A stretch of 64,000 bases of DNA from Myxococcota bacterium (GTDB lineage: Bacteria > Myxococcota_A > UBA9160 > PR03): contig JBDIVR010000006.1 of the NCBI GenBank assembly GCA_039794265.1, positions 71,573-135,572 of the forward strand, in the 5' to 3' direction. A program made the translations under genes and the position numbers. The notes beneath the pieces are model-generated. The model did no database searches. It worked only from the letters and a program-made list of their open reading frames with translations, and was not told the origin of the DNA. Positions 4,483 to 51,188 of this stretch are shown piece after piece. Position 1 is the first letter of the stretch. Every line of letters starts with the position of its first letter.

Positions 4483-5568
4483 ATGATCGACTTCGAGCCC
4501 ACCGAGGAGCAGCAGCTCATCGTCGACACCGTGCAGCAGTTCGCGCGCAGCGAGATCCGGCCGGTGGCTCGCGAATCGGAAGAGGCGAGCAAGCTGCCCG
4601 AGAAGGTGCTGTCGGCGGCGCACGAGCTCGGGCTCGTGGCGAACTCGCTGCCCGAGTCGGCCGGCGGCAGTGGTGAGCGCAGCGCGATCACCGGTGCGCT
4701 GATCGCCGAGGAGCTCGCGTGGGGCGATCTCGCGATCGCGCTGGCGATCCTGTCCCCGGGGCTCTCCGCGTTGCCGGTCGCGGAGTGGGGCACCGACGCG
4801 CAGAAGGAGTCGCTCGCCCGCTTCGTCGGTCCGGACTTCGTCCCCGGCGCGCTGGCGATCGTCGAGCCGCGCTTCGACTCGGACCCGTTCCGTCCCGCGA
4901 CGCTCGCCCGCCGCGACGGCGACGGCTTCGTGCTCGACGGCGCCAAGTGTCTCGTTCCGTGGCTCGACGGCGCGGATTCGGTACTGGTCGTCGCCAACGA
5001 AGGCGGCTCGTCGCAGCTGTTCCTGGTGCCGCGCGATGCCGGGGGCCTGAAGGTCGAACCCGAACGCTACATGGGCATCCAGGCGCTCCCGACTGCCGAG
5101 CTGACTCTGTCCGGTGTTGCCCTGCCCGCCTCGGCAAGGATCGGCGGCGATGCGGGCGTGGACATGCGCCGGTTGATCGCGCAGGGCCGCGTGGCGCTTG
5201 CGGCGATGGCGGTGGGCCTGGCGCGCGCAGCCTTCGAGACCGCGCGCGACTACGCGAAAGAGCGTCAGGTCTTCGGCGTACCGGTCGCCACCAAGCAGGC
5301 GATCGCGTTCAAGCTCGCCGACATGGCGCTCGAGATCGACGGTGCGCGGCTGCTCGCCTGGGAGGCGGCCTGGAAGCTCGACCGGGGCGAGGACGCCACC
5401 CGCGAGGCGCTGCTGGCGCGACGCCAGGCCAATCGCGTCGCGCTCGAGGTCGCCGACGGCGCCGTGCAGGTGCTCGGCGGGCACGGCTACATCCGGGACT
5501 ACCTGCCGGAGCTGCACCTGCGCAACGCCCGCGGCTTCACGTCGTTCGAGGCGCTGGCGCTCGTCTAG
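4483..5568 (+). CDS. Acyl-CoA dehydrogenase family protein (short, 361 aa; possibly the non-canonical partner of the next gene)
   Basis: The ATG at 4483 lies 2 nt after the thiolase stop. [17 protein letters not shown] and a GGHGYIRDY...FEALALV C-terminus fit the ACAD fold. The usual TEPxAGSD loop reads VEPRFDSD. The protein ends 7 residues after the conserved Glu position. Confidence 0.85.
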
Positions 5569-7104: not shown

Positions 7105-7187
7105 GTCAAGAAAGGGGCCGGGTTCGTTCGTCAACTTTTCCCCCGGATGGGGGAAAAGTTGACGAACGAACCCGGCCCCTTTCTTGA
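7105..7187. repeat. Perfect 83-bp palindrome, copy 1 of a recurrent element (40-bp arms, 4-nt GGAT apex)
   Basis: The left arm gtcaagaaaggggccgggttcgttcgtcaacttttccccc is the exact reverse complement of the right arm. It lies between the convergent stops at 7094 and 7210. A degenerate extra copy of the terminal 15-mer (ggcccccttctcgac) follows at 7188..7202. Confidence 0.95.
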
Positions 7188-7209
7188 CGGCCCCCTTCTC
7201 GACGGCGGG

Positions 7210-8007
7210 TCACTGCGCGAACTCGCGGCGCTTGAGTTCGCGGACGTACTCCGACAGTTCGGGATCCCCCGTCACCATCGCCGAGCTGCGCTCCTCGCAT
7301 TCGCGAGCCGCCTGCCGCAGCGGCTCGAGGTCGATGTCGAGGCCGAGGAACGGCAGCCCGCGCTCGAGCAGCGCCAGGGAGCCGCGTGCGTTCGGCGTGA
7401 CTTCGATGTAGTGCGGCAGGCCTGCCCACAAGCCGGCCACCTGACAGCCGCGATCGCGCAGGCGCTGCCCGAGCACGCCGATCATGCCGGTCGGACCCGC
7501 GTAGCGGACCGGCTCGACCGCCAGCTCGCGCAGCAGCGCGGCGTCGCTCGCGACGCCCGTCACATCGACGGGCCGCGAGTAGAGGACGTCACCGAGAAAC
7601 GCGCCGAGCAGCAGCACGCGCTGGATGCCGAGGGCATCGACGACGCTCAGCACATGATCCGACCAATCCCGCCAGCGCAGATGCGGCTCGACACCATGAC
7701 ACATGACGAGATCGCGGCCGGTGAGGCCTCCTTGCGGCCGCGCAGCAGCGAATCCGAAGTGCGTCGTCGGCCACTCGAGACCGCGCGCCACGCCGTCCTC
7801 GACGGTGGAGAACGGCCGCCGGACGGTGAAGTCGAAGTACTCCTCCGCGTCGATCTCCGCGAGCGGCGCCGCGCCGAGCGTACTCGCAACGAAGCGCACG
7901 GCGGTCGTGGCCGCCTCGCCAGCATCGTTCCAGCCTTCGAGGGCCATCAGCAGGGCGGCGTCGCGCAGGACGGGTCGCACGTGAAAGCGGAGCGGGCCTT
8001 CGGTCAC
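7210..8007 (-). CDS. PAC2 (proteasome assembly chaperone 2-like) family protein
   Basis: 265 aa. The N-terminal LLMALEGWNDAGEAATTAV motif and overall length match the bacterial PAC2 family as I remember it. Confidence 0.7.
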   Translation of the reverse strand: MTEGPLRFHVRPVLRDAALLMALEGWNDAGEAATTAVRFVASTLGAAPLAEIDAEEYFDFTVRRPFSTVEDGVARGLEWPTTHFGFAAARPQGGLTGRDLVMCHGVEPHLRWRDWSDHVLSVVDALGIQRVLLLGAFLGDVLYSRPVDVTGVASDAALLRELAVEPVRYAGPTGMIGVLGQRLRDRGCQVAGLWAGLPHYIEVTPNARGSLALLERGLPFLGLDIDLEPLRQAARECEERSSAMVTGDPELSEYVRELKRREFAQ

Positions 8008-18221: not shown

Positions 18222-18303
18222 CCGCTCGGCCACCAGAGGGGCCACGGGCGGGTCCGAAGTCCGAGCATCCTTAGCCCGGGGCCTCCGGACTGACAAGGCG
18301 AGC

Positions 18304-18380
18304 GTCAAGAAAGGGGCCGGGTTCGTTCGTCAACTTTTCCTTCGGAAAAGTTGACGAACGAACCCGGCCCCTTTCTTGAC
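18304..18380. repeat. Perfect 77-bp palindrome, copy 2 of the recurrent element (37-bp arms, TTC apex)
   Basis: gtcaagaaaggggccgggttcgttcgtcaacttttcc / ttc / ggaaaagttgacgaacgaacccggcccctttcttgac. The arms are identical to copy 1. It lies in the divergent region between topB (minus strand) and the HIT gene (plus strand). Confidence 0.95.
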
Positions 18381-18641
18381 GGCTTGCGGTCCGCGGGTTG
18401 CAGGAGGGGGGCTCCTTGCCCTACTCCGATCGGATGACGGATCGCGCGCTGGCCACTCCGGTCCTCGCCCTGGGTGCCGGCGACGTGCCGGCGTGATCCG
18501 AGTGGTCTCGGACCGCACGCGGTGGCGCCCGGGGGGAAACGCGCGATCTCGATCGCAACATGACCGCGGCGATTGCCGTGGCGCAGGACGCCGTCGCGCG
18601 GGTCGCCGCCGCCGACGAGCCGTGACGGGAGGACCCGACGC

Positions 18642-19020: not shown

Positions 19021-20253
19021 CTACTCGACGAGATTCGCCGGCACCGGCATCACGTTCCACGTGAACGCGGAGCCGACCGGCTGGCGCGTGTGGATGACCT
19101 CCTTCGCCCACCGGCCGTCCTGCCAGACGTAGCGCCGGACCTCGCCCTGGGTGTCGCTGGCGACGTACAGCTCGTCGCGGCCGTCGCCGTCGAGATCCGC
19201 GAGGATCGCTGCGTGCTCGAAGCCGCCGGACGCGCCGTCGATCAGGCTCTTCGTCCAGCGACCTGTGGCCGGCGCCGGCCCGGGCCGCAGCAGCCACAGG
19301 CCGCTCCGCATGCCGGCCGCGACCATCTCCCGCTGGCCATCGCCGTCGACGTCACCGGCCGTCAGGAAGCGGGTCTGCGTGTCGTCGAGCTCGGCGATCA
19401 CCGCGCCGTCCTTCGGGTCGGTCTCCGCGTCGTAGCGGCGGATCTCGACCTGGCCGCCGGAGACGGCCTCGACCGCCACGTACAGCTCGTCGCGGCCGTC
19501 TCCGTCGACGTCCGCGACGAGGATCTCCTTGGCGTGTCGGTCGCCCAGGTCCGCGACCTCCACGCGACCCTCACCCTTGGCGGGGATGTAGCGCGTCACC
19601 ATGCCGTGCTGGGGGGTTCCGTCGAGCCGGTTCGGCTCGCTCGGCGTCGCGTAGACCTCGAGCATGCCGTCGCCGTCGAGGTCGCCGACCTCGATCTCGT
19701 GTACGAACGTGTCGGCCTCCGCGTCGATCTCGGTGACCTTCCACGAGCCGTCGTCCTGTGGCGCGACGATCGCGACGATGCCCTGGTCGTGCGTCGCCAC
19801 GGCGATGTCGAGCTTGCCGTCGCCGTCGAGGTCGGCGATCTCGGCGTCGCGCATGCGGCTGAACTTGCCGCCGAAATCCCTCGTCCAGAGCGTTTCGGCG
19901 ACGAAGCCATCGGGCGCTTTGCGCCACAACTTCAGCGCCGCGGCGCTGCCCCCGAGCGTGAGGATCCCGTCTTCGTAAGCCATCGCCTTGTGGAAGACGT
20001 TGCTGTCCGGGTCGTCGATCGCCGTCACGGTCCATGCGCCGCCGCGGCGCAGCAGGATCTCGAGGCGGGCCGCCTGGGGCTTCGGCAGCACCTTGCCTTC
20101 CGGAGACACCTCGAACGGCGAGAGCGAGAGCAGGAGCCCGTAGGGCAGGTCGTCGCTCTTGCCTCCACAGGCGAGAGAGAGCCCGAGCGAGAACACGAGC
20201 AGGAGGGACAGTGCGGGCGCGCGGAACGGAGCGGTCGGCGGACGGCGGATCAT
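19021..20253 (-). CDS. FG-GAP/VCBS-repeat lipoprotein
   Basis: The true start is the ATG at 20253, with GGAGGAGG upstream. It has a lipobox (LSLACGG) and five D(L/V)DGDG calcium-type repeats (DLDGDGKLD, DLDGDGMLE, DVDGDGRDE, DVDGDGQRE, DLDGDGRDE). The upstream part of ORF 19021..21576 is antisense to hisS. Confidence 0.85.
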   Translation of the reverse strand: MIRRPPTAPFRAPALSLLLVFSLGLSLACGGKSDDLPYGLLLSLSPFEVSPEGKVLPKPQAARLEILLRRGGAWTVTAIDDPDSNVFHKAMAYEDGILTLGGSAAALKLWRKAPDGFVAETLWTRDFGGKFSRMRDAEIADLDGDGKLDIAVATHDQGIVAIVAPQDDGSWKVTEIDAEADTFVHEIEVGDLDGDGMLEVYATPSEPNRLDGTPQHGMVTRYIPAKGEGRVEVADLGDRHAKEILVADVDGDGRDELYVAVEAVSGGQVEIRRYDAETDPKDGAVIAELDDTQTRFLTAGDVDGDGQREMVAAGMRSGLWLLRPGPAPATGRWTKSLIDGASGGFEHAAILADLDGDGRDELYVASDTQGEVRRYVWQDGRWAKEVIHTRQPVGSAFTWNVMPVPANLVE

Positions 20254-20319
20254 CGGGGCCTCCTCCAGAGAGCCCGGTTTTGTAGCGTGCCCGGGAGCGG
20301 AGCGGTAACGGTCCCGGCC

Positions 20320-21597
20320 ATGGCCCAGTCGACGCTCCAGGCACCGCGCGGTACGCGCGATTTCTACCCCGACGAACTGCGCTTCCGCAGCTGGCTCTTC
20401 GACCACTTCCGCGAGGTCGCGCGCCGCTTCGGCTTCGAGGAGATCGACGCGCCGGTCGTCGAGTACGAGGAGCTGTTCACGCGCAAAGCGGGCGAGGAGA
20501 TCGCCCGGCAGCTGTACCACTTCGAGCTGCATGGCAGGAAGCTGGCACTTCGGCCGGAGATGACGCCGTCGATCGCGCGCATGGTGCTGGCCCGGGCGGG
20601 GGCTCTGCGGCTGCCGCTGCGCTGGTTCACCGTGACGCAGAACTGGCGCTACGAGCGGATGACGCGCGGCCGCAAGCGCGAGCACTTCCAATGGAACATG
20701 GACGTGTGGGGGGAACCGGGCGTCGCGGCCGAAGCGGAGCTGCTGGCGGCGATCTTCGCTCTGCTCGATCGGATCGGGCTCGGCGCCGGCCAGGTCCGCG
20801 TGCAGGTGAACAGCCGCGCGCTGCTCGAGGAGACGCTGCGCGCCGGCGTCTTGCAGAACCGGCCCGCCGCGTTCGAACCGCTGTGCGTGCTCATCGACAA
20901 GCTCTCGAAGATCGGCGCGGACGCCGTCGTCGATCAGCTCGTCGATCCGGCCGGGGCGGTGGGGCTGGCGCCGTCCGACGCGCGCGACGTGGTGGCGCTG
21001 CTCGGACTGCGCAGCCTCGACGACGCCGCGGCCGCCGCCCCGGCCGACTCCCGGGCGATCACCGATCTGCGACGGCTGTTCGAGCTGCTGGCCGCGTATG
21101 GCATCGCGGATCGCGTCGACTTCGACGCCTCGGTGGTCCGCGGACTCGCGTACTACACGGGCATCGTCTTCGAGGCGTTCGACGCCGACCGCAAGCTGCG
21201 CGCCGTCTGTGGCGGCGGCCGCTACGACCGCCTGCTCCAGACGCTCGGCGGACCGGCGATCCCGGCGGTCGGCTTCGGCTTCGGCGACGTGGTGATCGCC
21301 GAGCTGCTCGCGGAACACGGCCTCGTGCCGGCGCTCTCGCGCGGCGTCGACGACCTCGTGTGCGCGCTCGGCGAGGCCCAGCGTCCGGCGGCGATCCGAC
21401 TGGCGACGCGGCTGCGCGAAGCCGGTCGGTCCGTGGAGCTGGTGCTCGGCGACGTCCGGCCCAAGCGCGCGCTCGACGACGCCGATCGCGCCGGCGCGCG
21501 CCGCGCGCTCTTCGTCGGCCCGGACGAAGCCGCGCGCGGTGTCGTACGCGTACGCGAGCTCGGCGGCGACGAGCACGAGGAGCCGATCGACGGCTGA
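20320..21597 (+). CDS. hisS: Histidine--tRNA ligase
   Basis: ATG at 20320 (MAQSTLQAPRGTRDFYPDE). LALRPEMTPSIARM, RYERMTRGRKREHFQWNMDVWG and CGGGRYDRL are class-II HisRS motifs. The first 486 codons of ORF 18862..21597 are spurious. Confidence 0.95.
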   Translation: MAQSTLQAPRGTRDFYPDELRFRSWLFDHFREVARRFGFEEIDAPVVEYEELFTRKAGEEIARQLYHFELHGRKLALRPEMTPSIARMVLARAGALRLPLRWFTVTQNWRYERMTRGRKREHFQWNMDVWGEPGVAAEAELLAAIFALLDRIGLGAGQVRVQVNSRALLEETLRAGVLQNRPAAFEPLCVLIDKLSKIGADAVVDQLVDPAGAVGLAPSDARDVVALLGLRSLDDAAAAAPADSRAITDLRRLFELLAAYGIADRVDFDASVVRGLAYYTGIVFEAFDADRKLRAVCGGGRYDRLLQTLGGPAIPAVGFGFGDVVIAELLAEHGLVPALSRGVDDLVCALGEAQRPAAIRLATRLREAGRSVELVLGDVRPKRALDDADRAGARRALFVGPDEAARGVVRVRELGGDEHEEPIDG

Positions 21598-35228: not shown

Positions 35229-35327
35229 GGGGACGTTCCTTCCGAGGTTTCATTACGCCGACCGTGAGGCTTGTTGGAATCCGTTCACCCCCGGTCGGCG
35301 TAATGAAACCTCGGAAGGAACGTCCCC
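35229..35327. repeat. Spaced perfect inverted repeat (36-bp arms, 27-nt spacer), second palindromic element type
   Basis: ggggacgttccttccgaggtttcattacgccgaccg at 35229..35264 is the exact reverse complement of 35292..35327. It is intergenic, between the hypothetical gene and the methyltransferase 3' end. It is preceded by the tandem motifs gacaaaggggacg and gagaaagggggacg. Confidence 0.9.
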
Positions 35328-35344: not shown

Positions 35345-36016
35345 TTACTCGCGCGTCGCCACGCCCCGGTACATGGTCGCGAGGACCGAGGGTCCGGGCG
35401 CTCGGAAGCGGTCCATCGACGCGAGTTGGAAGCCGCCCTGCTCGACCAGCGCGTCGATGGATCGGTTCATGTTGCAGCCGCCCGTCACGCGTCGCCAAAG
35501 CGGGTTCAGTCGGTCCTGCCAGCGCGTGGTGCTCGGCCGATCACTGCGGCCGTGCTCGATGAACAGGTAGCGGCCGCCCGGCGCGAGCACACGCCGCATC
35601 TCGCGCAGCGCCGCGAGAGGGTCCGGGATCGAGCACAACGTCCACGTCGTCAGCACGCAGTCGAAGCGCCCGGCGTCGAACGGCAGCTGGCCGTCGGCGC
35701 GCAGCACGGTGCGGCGGACCGGAAAGCGGGCCTCGGCGATCCTCTGCTCGACGACCTCGAGGCCGTCCGTCGCCATCGGATCTAGGCCGGTGACGGAGTG
35801 CACGGCCTCGCCGTAGTGCCGGAGATTCCGCGCGGTGCCGAAGCCGACCTCGAGCACCTCGCCGGCGGCCTGCGAGATCGTCTCCGGGCGCAGGTCGTCG
35901 ACGGAACGCATCATCCAGTCCAGCAGCCGCGGAGCGATCCATTCCCGTAGGCTCACGCGTGCCCCCTTGGTGGACGACGGCTCCGAGTCGTTCGCAGCGT
36001 CGGGCGCCGGGAGCAT
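35345..36016 (-). CDS. Class I SAM-dependent methyltransferase
   Basis: VLEVGFGTARNL (motif I), FDCVLTTWTLCSIPD and LAPGGRYLFIEH are typical of the Methyltransf_11/25 type. Confidence 0.85.
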   Translation of the reverse strand: MLPAPDAANDSEPSSTKGARVSLREWIAPRLLDWMMRSVDDLRPETISQAAGEVLEVGFGTARNLRHYGEAVHSVTGLDPMATDGLEVVEQRIAEARFPVRRTVLRADGQLPFDAGRFDCVLTTWTLCSIPDPLAALREMRRVLAPGGRYLFIEHGRSDRPSTTRWQDRLNPLWRRVTGGCNMNRSIDALVEQGGFQLASMDRFRAPGPSVLATMYRGVATRE

Positions 36017-43154: not shown

Positions 43155-43366
43155 GATGCTGCCGAGGATACCGCGCGGGCCGCCCCGCTCGGGATCTGTA
43201 GCGGGGCCAGGCCTCGTCGATGCCGTCCTGCACATGAGCCGACCGGGGCTGCGCATCGCGAAGTCGCTCGCGATCCTGGCGGAAATCCTGCGCGCGGACG
43301 CACCCGGACTCGCCATCGGTTGGCGCGGGCGGGGCTGACGGGAACTCGGGACCTGACCAAGATTCC

Positions 43367-43444
43367 GTCAAGAAAGGGGCCGGGTTCGTCTGTCAACTTT
43401 TCCGTCCGGAAAAGTTGACAGACGAACCCGGCCCCTTTCTTGAC
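43367..43444. repeat. Perfect 78-bp palindrome, copy 3 of the recurrent element, with mirrored substitutions
   Basis: gtcaagaaaggggccgggttcgtCTgtcaacttttccg / tc / cggaaaagttgacAGacgaacccggcccctttcttgac. TC>CT in the left arm is matched by GA>AG in the right arm relative to copies 1 and 2. It is followed by an extra terminal 15-mer, ggcccttttcttgac, at 43445..43459. Confidence 0.95.
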
Positions 43445-43493
43445 GGCCCTTTTCTTGACGAGACGGACTGGGTCGTGGTACAAGCCGGTCGTG

Positions 43494-49785: not shown

Positions 49786-49865
49786 CTCCCCACGCCGGCG
49801 ACGCAATCCGACCCGGACCCGAATCCGCTGAATCGGGCAACCCCCCCAACGACTTGAAGCCGCCC

Positions 49866-49917
49866 GTCAGGAAAGGGGCCGTCAAGAAAGGGGCCGGGTT
49901 GGATCCGTCAACTTTTC
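49866..49917. repeat. Solo left arm of the recurrent palindrome, with tandem terminal 15-mer (copy 4, no right arm)
   Basis: The sequence reads gtcaggaaaggggcc gtcaagaaaggggccgggtt ggatcc gtcaactttt. It matches the left arm of copies 1-3 apart from the central ggatcc. No inverted partner follows. The TGA stop of the AMIN-domain gene (49908..49910) lies inside the gtcaac motif. Confidence 0.8.
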
Positions 49918-51188
49918 GCGGGTCGGCTCGCCGGCGTCGCCTTCCCCCGATCGGCAGCCAGGCGGACCGGCGGGTGACCGAGGGCGCGCTGGAGCCGCGC
50001 CAGAGCCAGGCGCTGGGAAGCCAGCTCCTCGGCCTGCGCGTGGGTCGTGCGATCCATCTGCTCGACGCGCTCGCGCAGCCCACCGAGCAACGCATCCCCC
50101 TGCGCGGCGCGATCATCGAGGCGTTGGATCATCCGCAACAGATCGCCGGCGAGGGACTCCCCGTCGTCGCGAGGCGCCGGGAACGACGGCCCGGAGGACG
50201 CCTCGGTCCCCGCGGACGCCGTGTCGCCGTGCCGCGTCTCGACGCTCGGTTCCTTCGCCCGCTGCTCCCTCGACACGGCCCGGTGCGAAGCGACCGCCTC
50301 CTCGTCTCGCGACGCGACCGGCAGGATCTCGTCGCGAGGTGCCTCCGGCTCCTCCGGGGGCTCGAGGGCCCGAGTCTCGCGTCGACCTTCACTCCGGTTC
50401 AGGAGCGTCAGTGCGACGCCGAGCACGAGACCGGTGACGGCTCCGATGACCAGCGAGCGCCCGTCGAAACGCGCGGCGATCGCGGCGGGGGGGGCACCCG
50501 ATACGGGCGGAAGCGGCAGCTCGACCGGCGGGGGCGGCGTGGGCGGCGTGGGCGGCGGCGGCGGTTCCGGTAACTCGGCGAGCAACGCCGCAACGGCATC
50601 CTCCCCGTCGTCTTCGATCTCGTCGCTCGGTGCGCCTCGCTGCGCGCCCTCGCGTGCCGCGTCCGGACCCGTCGAGGGCGGCGCGCCGCTCTCACGTCGC
50701 GTCGCGTCCTCCTCGTCGCCTTCCTCGCCCTCGAGCGGGGACTCTGCCGCCGCGCTGGCCCGACGCAGATCGAGCACGACGCGGGGCGGCTCGTCGAGCA
50801 CCTGGCTCTCGACGCGCACCGGCACCGTCGCGCGGATCCTCGCGAGCGTCCCGCCACCGGGAAGCGATTCGACCAGCACCTCGGCGCCCGACGCGCCGGC
50901 CGCGGCCCGCAACGCGACCGTCGGCGCCAGCTCGGCATCGAGGCGCACGAGCGTCTCGCCCGGCGTTCCTTCCGCCTCGATCGAGAACGCGGCCGGCGCG
51001 TCCGTCTCGAACACGACCCGGACGAACTCGGGATGCCGTCCGACCCGGACCTCCACGAGCCGCGCCCCGTCCGCCGTCGCCGCCGCACTCGCCGCGAGCG
51101 CCGCGAGCGCGAACGGGAGCAGGCGCGCGGACGGGACGCGCGTCGAGCACCGCCCGTGAGCCTGCTTTCGGGTCGCAGCTTCGATCAC
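49908..51188 (-). CDS. Bitopic membrane protein with periplasmic AMIN domain, Pro-rich linker, one TM helix and a cytoplasmic coiled/acidic tail
   Basis: GTG at 51188 with GGAGG 6 nt upstream. Signal peptide LLPFALAALAASAAATADG. The AMIN-like pattern is LVEVRVGRHPEFVRVVFETDAP...TLVRLDAEL...ARIRATVPVRVESQVLDEPPRVVLDL. PPPPPTPPTPPPP follows, then the TM helix LVIGAVTGLVLGVALTLL. Confidence 0.65.
   Translation of the reverse strand: MIEAATRKQAHGRCSTRVPSARLLPFALAALAASAAATADGARLVEVRVGRHPEFVRVVFETDAPAAFSIEAEGTPGETLVRLDAELAPTVALRAAAGASGAEVLVESLPGGGTLARIRATVPVRVESQVLDEPPRVVLDLRRASAAAESPLEGEEGDEEDATRRESGAPPSTGPDAAREGAQRGAPSDEIEDDGEDAVAALLAELPEPPPPPTPPTPPPPVELPLPPVSGAPPAAIAARFDGRSLVIGAVTGLVLGVALTLLNRSEGRRETRALEPPEEPEAPRDEILPVASRDEEAVASHRAVSREQRAKEPSVETRHGDTASAGTEASSGPSFPAPRDDGESLAGDLLRMIQRLDDRAAQGDALLGGLRERVEQMDRTTHAQAEELASQRLALARLQRALGHPPVRLAADRGKATPASRPAKS

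Follow-up and report, generated by a model that had tools for sequence, protein, structure and literature searches.

A dispersed, REPIN-like family of hairpin repeats with concertedly changing arms in Myxococcota

The 64,000-nucleotide stretch of a Myxococcota genome analyzed here (GenBank assembly GCA_039794265.1, contig JBDIVR010000006.1, positions 71,573 to 135,572 of the forward strand; hereafter the window) contains three copies of a long palindrome, the third of which (copy 3, positions 43365-43446 of the window) differs from the other two by mirrored changes that leave its symmetry intact. Copy 3 is a member of a dispersed and probably mobile family of hairpin repeats resembling the REPINs, which are paired repetitive extragenic palindromic (REP) sequences, and the concerted evolution of its two arms most likely stems from hairpin-templated copying.

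The conserved core of copy 3 spans 43367-43444, and flanking CC and GG dinucleotides lengthen the pairing to 40-nucleotide (nt) arms that are 100% complementary (43365-43404 and 43407-43446) around a 2-nt centre, TC (43405-43406). On the + strand, the variable block reads CGTCT in the left arm (43387-43391) and its exact mirror AGACG in the right arm (43420-43424), where copies 1 and 2 have CGTTC, the block of most copies, and GAACG. This TC>CT and GA>AG change, which keeps the palindrome perfect, had been pointed out in the initial annotation of the window, and every letter of it was reproduced on re-examination. The apex was also confirmed to differ among the copies, reading CCCCCGGATGGGGG in copy 1, CCTTCGG in copy 2 and CCGTCCGG in copy 3, with loops of GGAT, TTC and GTCC, respectively, on C/G stems of unequal length.

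Copy 1 (7105-7188; 40-nt arms, block CGTTC) sits between convergent Trm112-like and PAC2 genes, and copy 2 (18303-18381; 38-nt arms, block CGTTC) between divergent topoisomerase and HIT genes. Copy 3 also lies between divergent genes, an AidB-like gene on one side and a paaX-like gene on the other. A single arm (49881-49917, + strand, block GGATCC) brings the total to three doublets and one single arm in 64 kb. Predicted folds of the three palindromes as single-stranded DNA reach -53 to -59 kcal/mol (z = -12 to -14; for copy 3, -53.4 kcal/mol and z -12.4), and the region of the single arm (49856-49940) folds no better than its shuffles (-16.1 vs. -16.3 kcal/mol, z 0.09).

Concerted Change of the Two Arms

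Exact-pattern scans of sequence collections revealed further copies in two metagenome-assembled genomes (MAGs), CAADGG01 and CAYOHN01, labelled in their records as "uncultured proteobacterium PRO3" and "Spirochaetales", respectively, and in 32 short sediment-type metagenome contigs. Together with the window these supplied a census of 115 arms, and further related assemblies (ENA, JGI, Logan) also carry family members. The two MAGs contain dozens of copies, and many CAYOHN01 contigs end within one. A full element consists of two inverted arms of 37-40 nt around a loop of 2-4 nt, and is predicted to be able to fold as a long hairpin or cruciform. From the outside inward, each arm is composed of (G)CC-GTCAAGAAAGGGGCC-GGGTT, a variable block of 5-6 nt (roughly S-G-W-W-Y-C, with many variants), a GTCAAC box, a TTTTCC stretch and a variable apex; a "B" subfamily carries GTCAACCAAGGGGCC. 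The outer 20-mer and the GTCAAC box are invariant in every lineage, including in partner arms that did not serve as search key; the end sequences are under constraint. All copies are intergenic save for overlaps with stop codons. Identical doublets occur at different loci (L006/L022, L035/L056 and L054/L066).

The check that the annotation had set beforehand for its proposal, namely covariation between mirrored positions over a larger collection of copies, came out in its favour within the clade formed by the window and the two MAGs, in which 23 complete doublets were scored. The block is identical on both arms in all 23, over nine variants: CGTTC (10 doublets), GGATTC (four), CGTTTC and CGATTC (two each), and GGTTTC, GGCAT, CATTTC, GGATCC and CGTCT (once each). 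At these variant frequencies, 23 matched blocks would have a chance probability of 8e-15. In the aligned structure, 99.9% of 885 base-pair cells are paired, and just three single-arm departures within an element were found among them. Changes on both sides affect 13 of 39 pairs (2.9 in shuffles) and 28 cells (4.7 in shuffles), values that none of 500 shuffles attain, and the signal collapses when the partner is slid by 1-3 columns. A mirrored 1-nt deletion is present on both arms in 12 sequences. Mirroring extends to the apex stem across its variants (TTTTGCCC, TTTTTCC and TTCTCGCGCC) and to the outer 15-mer, in the B subfamily (GTCAACC..., mirrored as ...GGTTGAC) as well as in the GGGGTC type. 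Palindromy even reaches copy-specific flanks beyond the permutation expectation (sum 80 vs. 58.7, P = 0.0003), for instance by 8 bp at L037, 7 bp at L009 and 9 bp at L108. The arms thus change in concert in this clade.

Could such symmetry be a coincidence of two independent mutations in copy 3, or result from the simplification of inverted repeats in assembly graphs? It is true that the perfect doublets retrieved by the collection scans are all in MAGs, and that the asymmetric ones described below come from another source (JGI contigs). Nevertheless, chance is very unlikely to produce four coordinated base changes, the block matches in all 23 doublets from at least three independent assemblies, and the mirrored pattern is found again in ENA, JGI and Logan assemblies. 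Moreover, elements of 78-87 bp are shorter than typical reads and than the k of 127 of the CAADGG contigs, and assemblers demonstrably output asymmetric doublets. We consider an artefact or coincidence very improbable.

A Sister Lineage with Unpaired Blocks

The doublets of the metagenomic lineage (loci L080-L105) have mirrored blocks in one case of 15 and non-mirrored blocks in the other 14. Most combine a T-rich CGTTTC arm with an A-rich arm (GGAATC, GAAATC or CGAAAC), such that one strand is T-rich in both arms (CGTTTC...GTTTCG, e.g., L103:1133-1217), resulting in a T:T internal loop and in strand polarity. The hairpins of this lineage have an internal loop of 3-6 nt at the block and imperfect apices; their outer arms are invariant, with flanks of CCCC on one side and GGGG on the other. 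No consistent orientation relative to the neighbouring genes was detected in this lineage. Given the 14 non-mirrored blocks, pairing of the block is no general functional requirement of the family, and symmetry is lineage-specific. The claim that symmetry is maintained consequently stands for the clade of the window and fails for the family as a whole.

This contrast bears on the explanation that these elements are functional RNA or DNA stem-loops under selection, i.e., bidirectional terminators, stabilizers of mRNA 3' ends or cruciform binding sites, and that the mirrored changes are compensatory substitutions. The outer part, AAGAAAGGGGCCGGG...CCCGGCCCCTTTCTT, is shaped like a bidirectional intrinsic terminator, and chance 17-mer matches in other phyla are exactly such terminators (L044, L024 and L071). 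Many copies abut stop codons. Of 34 doublets, 10 are flanked by gene ends on both sides, i.e., lie between convergent genes, copy 1 included; 13 have at least one adjacent gene end (three of them with the contig edge on their other side), 10 have none, and one was not classifiable. Arms are also far better conserved than the flanking intergenic DNA at orthologous sites. However, the genes around copies 2 and 3 are divergent, and gene orientation is split in about equal thirds between convergent, one-sided and none, for which reason a purely terminator-like siting was rejected. A terminator scan at the palindromes returned nothing; in the terminator form, GGGGCCGGG...CCCGGCCCC followed by TTTCTT, the T tract falls inside the full stem. 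Copies between convergent genes may act as terminators, a role that does not suit copies 2 and 3 or one third of the doublets. Furthermore, a mismatch in a stem of 38-40 bp costs little, and selection would hardly suffice to hold pairing at 99.9% in the absence of wobble intermediates. An internal loop is tolerated in the sister lineage, and the symmetry of the window's clade extends to unique flanks and apex bases lacking plausible function. Finally, single arms are unable to fold by themselves and are yet conserved between orthologous loci, which counts against a need for selection on pairing. Compensatory selection is not the best explanation of the mirrored changes, and we regard a selected stem-loop as an unlikely account of the family.

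Turnover and Change in Place at Orthologous Sites

Orthologous loci were gathered by looking up neighbouring proteins in related assemblies. At the copy-1 site, nine assemblies of the CAADGG species have an empty spacer of 26 nt between the ends of the Trm112-like and PAC2 genes. A relative of 91% identity (L135 and L137) carries another variant at this site, with block GGATCC and stem TTTTCCTCC, and the L135 doublet shows several mirrored differences from copy 1. In L136, the flanks are 100.000% identical to those of L135 over 7.1 kb, yet 82 bp are deleted between two CCCGGCC repeats, one of which is within the right arm, leaving CCTTTCTTGAC alone (L135:4489-4595 vs. L136:4489-4513). The filled allele is present in L137, from the Logan assembly SRR18711753, and the same run shares the copy-2 deletion with a MAG (L118), which suggests that filled and deleted alleles both occur in closely related populations.

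The neighbouring site, between the PAC2 start and a response-regulator gene end, is empty in the window; L108 and L134, with 97.1% identity over 7.2 kb, each have an element there. These two elements have unique flanks in common (GTCGCA[C/T]CC...GGGTGCGAC) and therefore derive from one insertion. L108 has GGGGTC and GACCCC vs. GGGGCC and GGCCCC in L134, a mirrored C:G>T:A change in place. L108 further differs by one flank and two apex changes, which result in a perfect palindrome of 47 nt per side, interrupted solely by its extra 15-mer of the same variant.

At the copy-2 site, L119 carries a doublet with identical arms but with the loop GTCC and strongly diverged flanks, and in L117 and L118 a deletion between CCCGG repeats, which took 24 nt of the flank with it, has left just CCCCTTTCTTGAC. 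The copy-3 palindrome is missing from five loci of 95% identity (L120-L124), which retain only AGCCCCTTTCTTGAC at the position of the extra 15-mer; this remnant corresponds to either the extra 15-mer or the terminal 15-mer of the right arm. In L129 the opposite end alone is retained (GTCAAGAAAGGGGCCGGGT), joined at a GGGT microhomology. These opposite-end remnants in two relatives indicate that the copy-3 palindrome is ancestral and was deleted independently in each. The element is absent in L125 and L138.

The site of the single arm holds an arm and a 15-mer, both of the GACCCC type, in L129-L131, and a degraded arm with a hybrid junction in L126-L128 (GAGAGTTGAC in L126); it is empty in L133, where the gene ends in GAGAGCTGA. 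The single arm of the window is most simply read as a deletion remnant. Orthology of its locus with L027 and L065 was rejected as unproven because the AMIN-domain proteins are just 33% identical, and the comparison was made with closer relatives. In the window, the stop codon of the AMIN-domain gene (49908-49910, - strand) falls within the GTCAAC box of the arm, and at L065:2608-2610 a similar AMIN-domain gene terminates inside a doublet, at the outer end of the latter (TGACAACC); gene ends are thus provided by the elements or overlap with them.

Elements also persist at orthologous positions in genomes of 79-91% identity. Between CAYOHN and CAADGG, at a background identity of 79%, both single arms (L007/L046) and doublets (L065/L027) are orthologous, their arms being far better conserved than the surrounding DNA, and the L065/L027 doublets differ by several mirrored changes. 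The single arms face inward (L007:2542-2618 and 5013-5049; L046:4953-4989 and 7430-7481) and bound a block of three genes (haloalkane dehalogenase-like, lipocalin and DUF1499) at orthologous positions in both MAG genomes. At one end of the block, CAYOHN has two tandem arms of the A and B types, and CAADGG a 15-mer and one arm. Altogether, copies are gained and lost rapidly, and microhomology deletions (CCCGG, CCCGGCC, GGGT) leave single arms or lone 15-mers.

Such turnover could mean that symmetry merely reflects youth, i.e., that the elements are recent copies of several palindromic masters, deleted before their arms diverge, without maintenance in place. Presence/absence polymorphism even between 100% identical flanks, identical doublets at different loci, subfamily variants common to several loci and genomes, and the many contigs that break inside elements, as high-copy recent repeats would cause, are all consistent with this explanation. 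Nevertheless, it shifts the problem, as a symmetric master would be needed for each of at least nine block variants and of many apex variants. L108 and L134 derive from a single insertion, yet a mirrored pair and the changes perfecting flank and apex differ between them; orthologous elements have persisted at 79-91% genome identity, and the palindromy of the flanks is copy-specific. Youth alone is a rather improbable cause of the symmetry.

Hairpin-Templated Copying as the Probable Cause of Symmetry

The cause of the symmetry is likely mutational, by hairpin-templated copying, rather than selective. The mirrored change of copy 3 would have arisen once on one arm, and would then have been copied to the other arm through intrastrand pairing, either by polymerase template switching across the hairpin (quasipalindrome correction) or by repair of a mismatch in the hairpin. 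We infer copying from arm to arm because the energetic cost of a single mismatch is trivial in a stem of about 40 bp and the sister lineage tolerates a bubble, and because symmetry reaches copy-specific flanks and apex bases and template switching is a documented process. Three reports describe template switching at quasipalindromes as homogenizing and expanding the arms of inverted repeats, and as giving multinucleotide changes in one step (PMC8604942, PMC13100816, PMC7202029). New copies made from already palindromic masters would add to the symmetric pattern, and selection for a perfect stem would not be required. A putative trans-acting protein, either a transposase or a host DNA-binding protein, most likely recognizes the invariant outer 20-mer and the GTCAAC box, and the family is probably a non-autonomous mobile repeat.

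Several observations weigh against this reading. First, no open reading frame of the PF01797 family, that of the REP-associated tyrosine transposases (RAYTs), was found in the 588,768 bases of the window and all loci, a small sample to exclude one. This search compared a hidden Markov model built from 60 PF01797 proteins with six-frame translations and returned nothing at E<1; the PF01797 protein search was saturated by Gammaproteobacteria and not narrowed to Myxococcota. Searches by tblastn with RAYT and IS200-like sequences were likewise negative, and a weak RAYT match in L065 was dismissed as spurious since it falls inside the AMIN-domain gene. A single RAYT gene per genome of several megabases is easily missed in a sample of this size. 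Second, no recurrent candidate or transposase-like gene family lies beside the elements in the ~0.6 Mb examined. Third, the evidence for mobility consists of presence/absence differences and of loci that share identical copies; no junction left by excision or insertion was seen, and every clear polymorphism with an inferable direction is a deletion, not an insertion. Fourth, subfamily variants (GGGGTC, CCA) recur at several loci, and a different palindromic copy could therefore have replaced or converted some of the orthologues that differ by mirrored changes, without copying from arm to arm. In addition, the perfect symmetry is read from sequences assembled from short reads. Finally, if template switching is a general replication error, the asymmetric blocks of the metagenomic lineage are left unaccounted for.

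The outer 15-mer is relevant to a further explanation. The proposal that it is a discrete unit was borne out in that it behaves as a module: it occurs in tandem, shares the variant of its neighbour and survives alone after deletions. In the window, it is found 13 times with at most three mismatches vs. 1.0 +/- 1.1 times in shuffles, and GTCAACTTTTCC eight times vs. 0.84 expected; the repeat motifs are far above chance. Extra degenerate copies had been annotated next to three elements. Those beside copy 3 (43445-43459, - strand; GTCAAGAAAAGGGCC, one mismatch) and before the single arm (49866-49880, + strand; GTCAGGAAAGGGGCC, one mismatch) lie where they had been placed, and that of copy 1, given as 7188-7202, is really at 7189-7203 (- strand; GTCGAGAAGGGGGCC, two mismatches). 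Across the family, one or two extra outer 15-mers flank 10 of 113 arms under a strict threshold (at most three mismatches to the adjacent terminal 15-mer), and a few more degenerate ones recognizable by eye bring the share to roughly 10% of arms. Their position is invariably external to the arm, and a doublet has them at one of its ends only; the 15-mer occurs in up to three tandem copies. At several loci they share the variant of their neighbour (the B type in L051; GACCCC in L046, L108 and L129), and in several of them GTCGAG replaces GTCAAG. Where a 15-mer stands alone, at the copy-2 and copy-3 sites, it is what a deletion left behind.

Copying could, on this further explanation, also extend the palindrome into its flanks and rebuild its apex, and an enzyme other than a RAYT would cut or cross modules that each end in TTGAC, namely GTTGAC, block-AACCC-GGCCCCTTTCTTGAC and GGCCCCTTTCTTGAC. 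TTGAC would be the site of cleavage or crossover, and the sister lineage with its strand-specific T:T bubble the strand-asymmetric form. The extra 15-mers confined to the outer side, a truncated doublet in L130 and the above-chance palindromy of the flanks are hints in this direction, as is an ancestral TTGAC or TGA at the boundary of the window's element in two relatives (copy-3 and single-arm loci). The L130 doublet is cut off exactly after the inner GTTGAC of its second arm (L130:5361-5420), which, with the 15-mer modules ending in TTGAC, points tentatively to TTGAC as a favoured site of breakage or crossover. We hold this further explanation to be tentative and unlikely as a whole. Hairpin-templated copying in a REPIN-like repeat is the account that we consider probable.

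Comparison with Known Repeats

REPINs of Pseudomonas fluorescens SBW25 and other RAYT-bearing bacteria are the closest match, membership being unproven. As with REPINs, the repeats are dispersed and extragenic, and the replicative unit comprises two inverted parts with invariant ends and a less conserved middle that still pairs; singlets are remnants of doublets, and orthologous loci retain their copies. Bertels and Rainey (2011; PMC3116915) described REPINs as having invariant ends and a variable spacer in the hairpin, in which compensatory changes are common, and singlets as remnants. Differences are that the single arm of the window is no small palindrome (as judged by its z of 0.09) and bears no GTAG-type 5' motif at its end, that the arms of 37-40 nt are essentially perfect, that no RAYT gene was found in 589 kb, and that the host belongs to Myxococcota rather than Proteobacteria. 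A REP unit is a short imperfect palindrome with a conserved GTAG-type tetranucleotide at its 5' end.

Bacterial interspersed mosaic elements (BIMEs) of Escherichia coli combine REP sequences of the Y and Z types, alternating in orientation, into mosaics. The doublets of the metagenomic lineage usually pair two types of arms in a manner resembling Y and Z, and the extra outer modules recall mosaic-like arrays; however, there is no sequence similarity, and the clade of the window has identical arms. Miniature inverted-repeat transposable elements (MITEs), such as the Correia elements of Neisseria, are likewise short, intergenic, of high copy number and bounded only by terminal inverted repeats, and their ends can overlap promoter boxes. 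Unlike MITEs, the present elements have no target-site duplication; their flanks are inverted complements (GCC with GGC, or CCCC with GGGG), and C occupies position -1 in 108 of 113 arms. The sole 7-bp direct repeat, in L135, has one copy inside the arm and hence marks a deletion, not a target-site duplication. No partner insertion sequence with the same ends was seen in the ~0.6 Mb examined, and a composite transposon was rejected since the two 2.5-kb segments bounded by arms (L007 and L046) are orthologous host genes.

Quasipalindrome template switching shares with this family the homogenized arms, the mirrored multinucleotide changes and the expansion of the repeat into its flanks. It is, however, a mutational mechanism and not an element family; most documented cases are from E. 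coli reporters or from yeast or ape genomes, and it is not known as the steady state of a repeat family in bacteria. Integron attC sites are imperfect palindromes that function as folded single strands, in which structure is kept over sequence and unpaired bases set the choice of strand, a property comparable to the unpaired block of the metagenomic lineage, whereas the present elements have conserved sequence at their ends. An attC identity was rejected, as GTCAAC/GTTGAC is unlike the RYYYAAC/GTTRRRY cores and copies are solitary among unrelated housekeeping genes, without cassette arrays or integrase. A resemblance to the tRNA T-loop (GGGTTCGATTC) was dropped for lack of a T-stem partner, CRISPR repeats because no spaced arrays are present, and a protelomerase target because of the many intergenic copies. 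Across the whole window no Rfam family reached its gathering score, and a permissive search gave only sub-threshold matches to generic miRNA hairpins. No family member was found in viral contigs, a blastn search of a plasmid collection gave no match, and the literature searched contained no report of the motif sequence and none of REPs in Myxococcota.

Upstream Region of paaX and Other Features of the Window

Downstream of copy 3, the promoter-like boxes TTGACG (43455-43460) and TACAAG (43479-43484), separated by an 18-nt spacer on the + strand (43455-43484), lie upstream of the GTG start of the paaX-like gene at 43491. The motif TTGAC-N18-TA[G/C]AA[G/A] is conserved in four orthologous paaX upstream regions, two of which are without the element: TTGACG-N18-TAGAAG is found in L120 and L125, and TTGAC-N18-TAGAAA in L138, L125 and L138 being those that lack it. 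Since the boxes are conserved with and without the element, they are probably the ancestral promoter of paaX, the -35-like box of which is now overlain by the terminal TTGAC of the element. The annotation had tentatively proposed an outward promoter for the PaaX-like gene. A promoter of that gene is probable from this conservation. A general outward promoter of the element was rejected, because a -10-like box 16-18 nt beyond the terminal TTGAC accompanies none of 113 arms; a scan for the sigma-70 promoter consensus at all three palindromes detected nothing. The window also lacks ~1.2 kb, with PNPOx-like and Peripla_BP_2 genes, that is present in L120 and L125 between the AidB-like gene and paaX; the junction (43204-43213) is ~150 bp to the left of copy 3.

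Near copy 2, positions 18434-18496 hold a remnant of a PNP_UDP_1 gene (ATGACGGATCGC..., 20 codons followed by a stop), ~620 bp of which are deleted in the window; L117 and L119 have the full gene of 272 amino acids between palindrome copy 2 and the HIT gene. Direct repeats with units of 46-57 nt (19160-19841) lie inside the gene at 19021-21576 and are ordinary coding repeats, given that the version of this gene in relatives matches FG-GAP repeat domains. An unrelated perfect inverted repeat at 35229-35327 has 36-nt arms (GGGGACGTTCCTTCCGAGGTTTCATTACGCCGACCG) and a 27-nt spacer, is less GC-rich than its surroundings and lies just downstream of the stop of a - strand gene (35345-36016); it was absent from all loci with which it was compared. 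Outside the window, two contigs end inside elements with non-genomic tails (L039:6900-6924 and L109:5400-5426), one a poly-G run and the other (AGTGTAGATCTCGG...) presumably a sequencing adapter. These tails look like assembly artefacts at repeats.

Concluding Remarks

The mirrored change of the arms has already been described for REPINs, and the present work adds a new family of that sort in Myxococcota. The elements break MAG assemblies, and they also reshape gene ends, as exemplified by the stop codon within an arm. With a near-symmetric clade, a bubble-bearing sister lineage, and filled, empty and remnant sites at orthologous positions, the family constitutes an unusually clean natural data set on the concerted evolution of palindrome arms, and the contrast between its lineages makes it testable whether selection or a mutational process, e.g., template switching, preserves the symmetry of hairpins in bacterial repeats.

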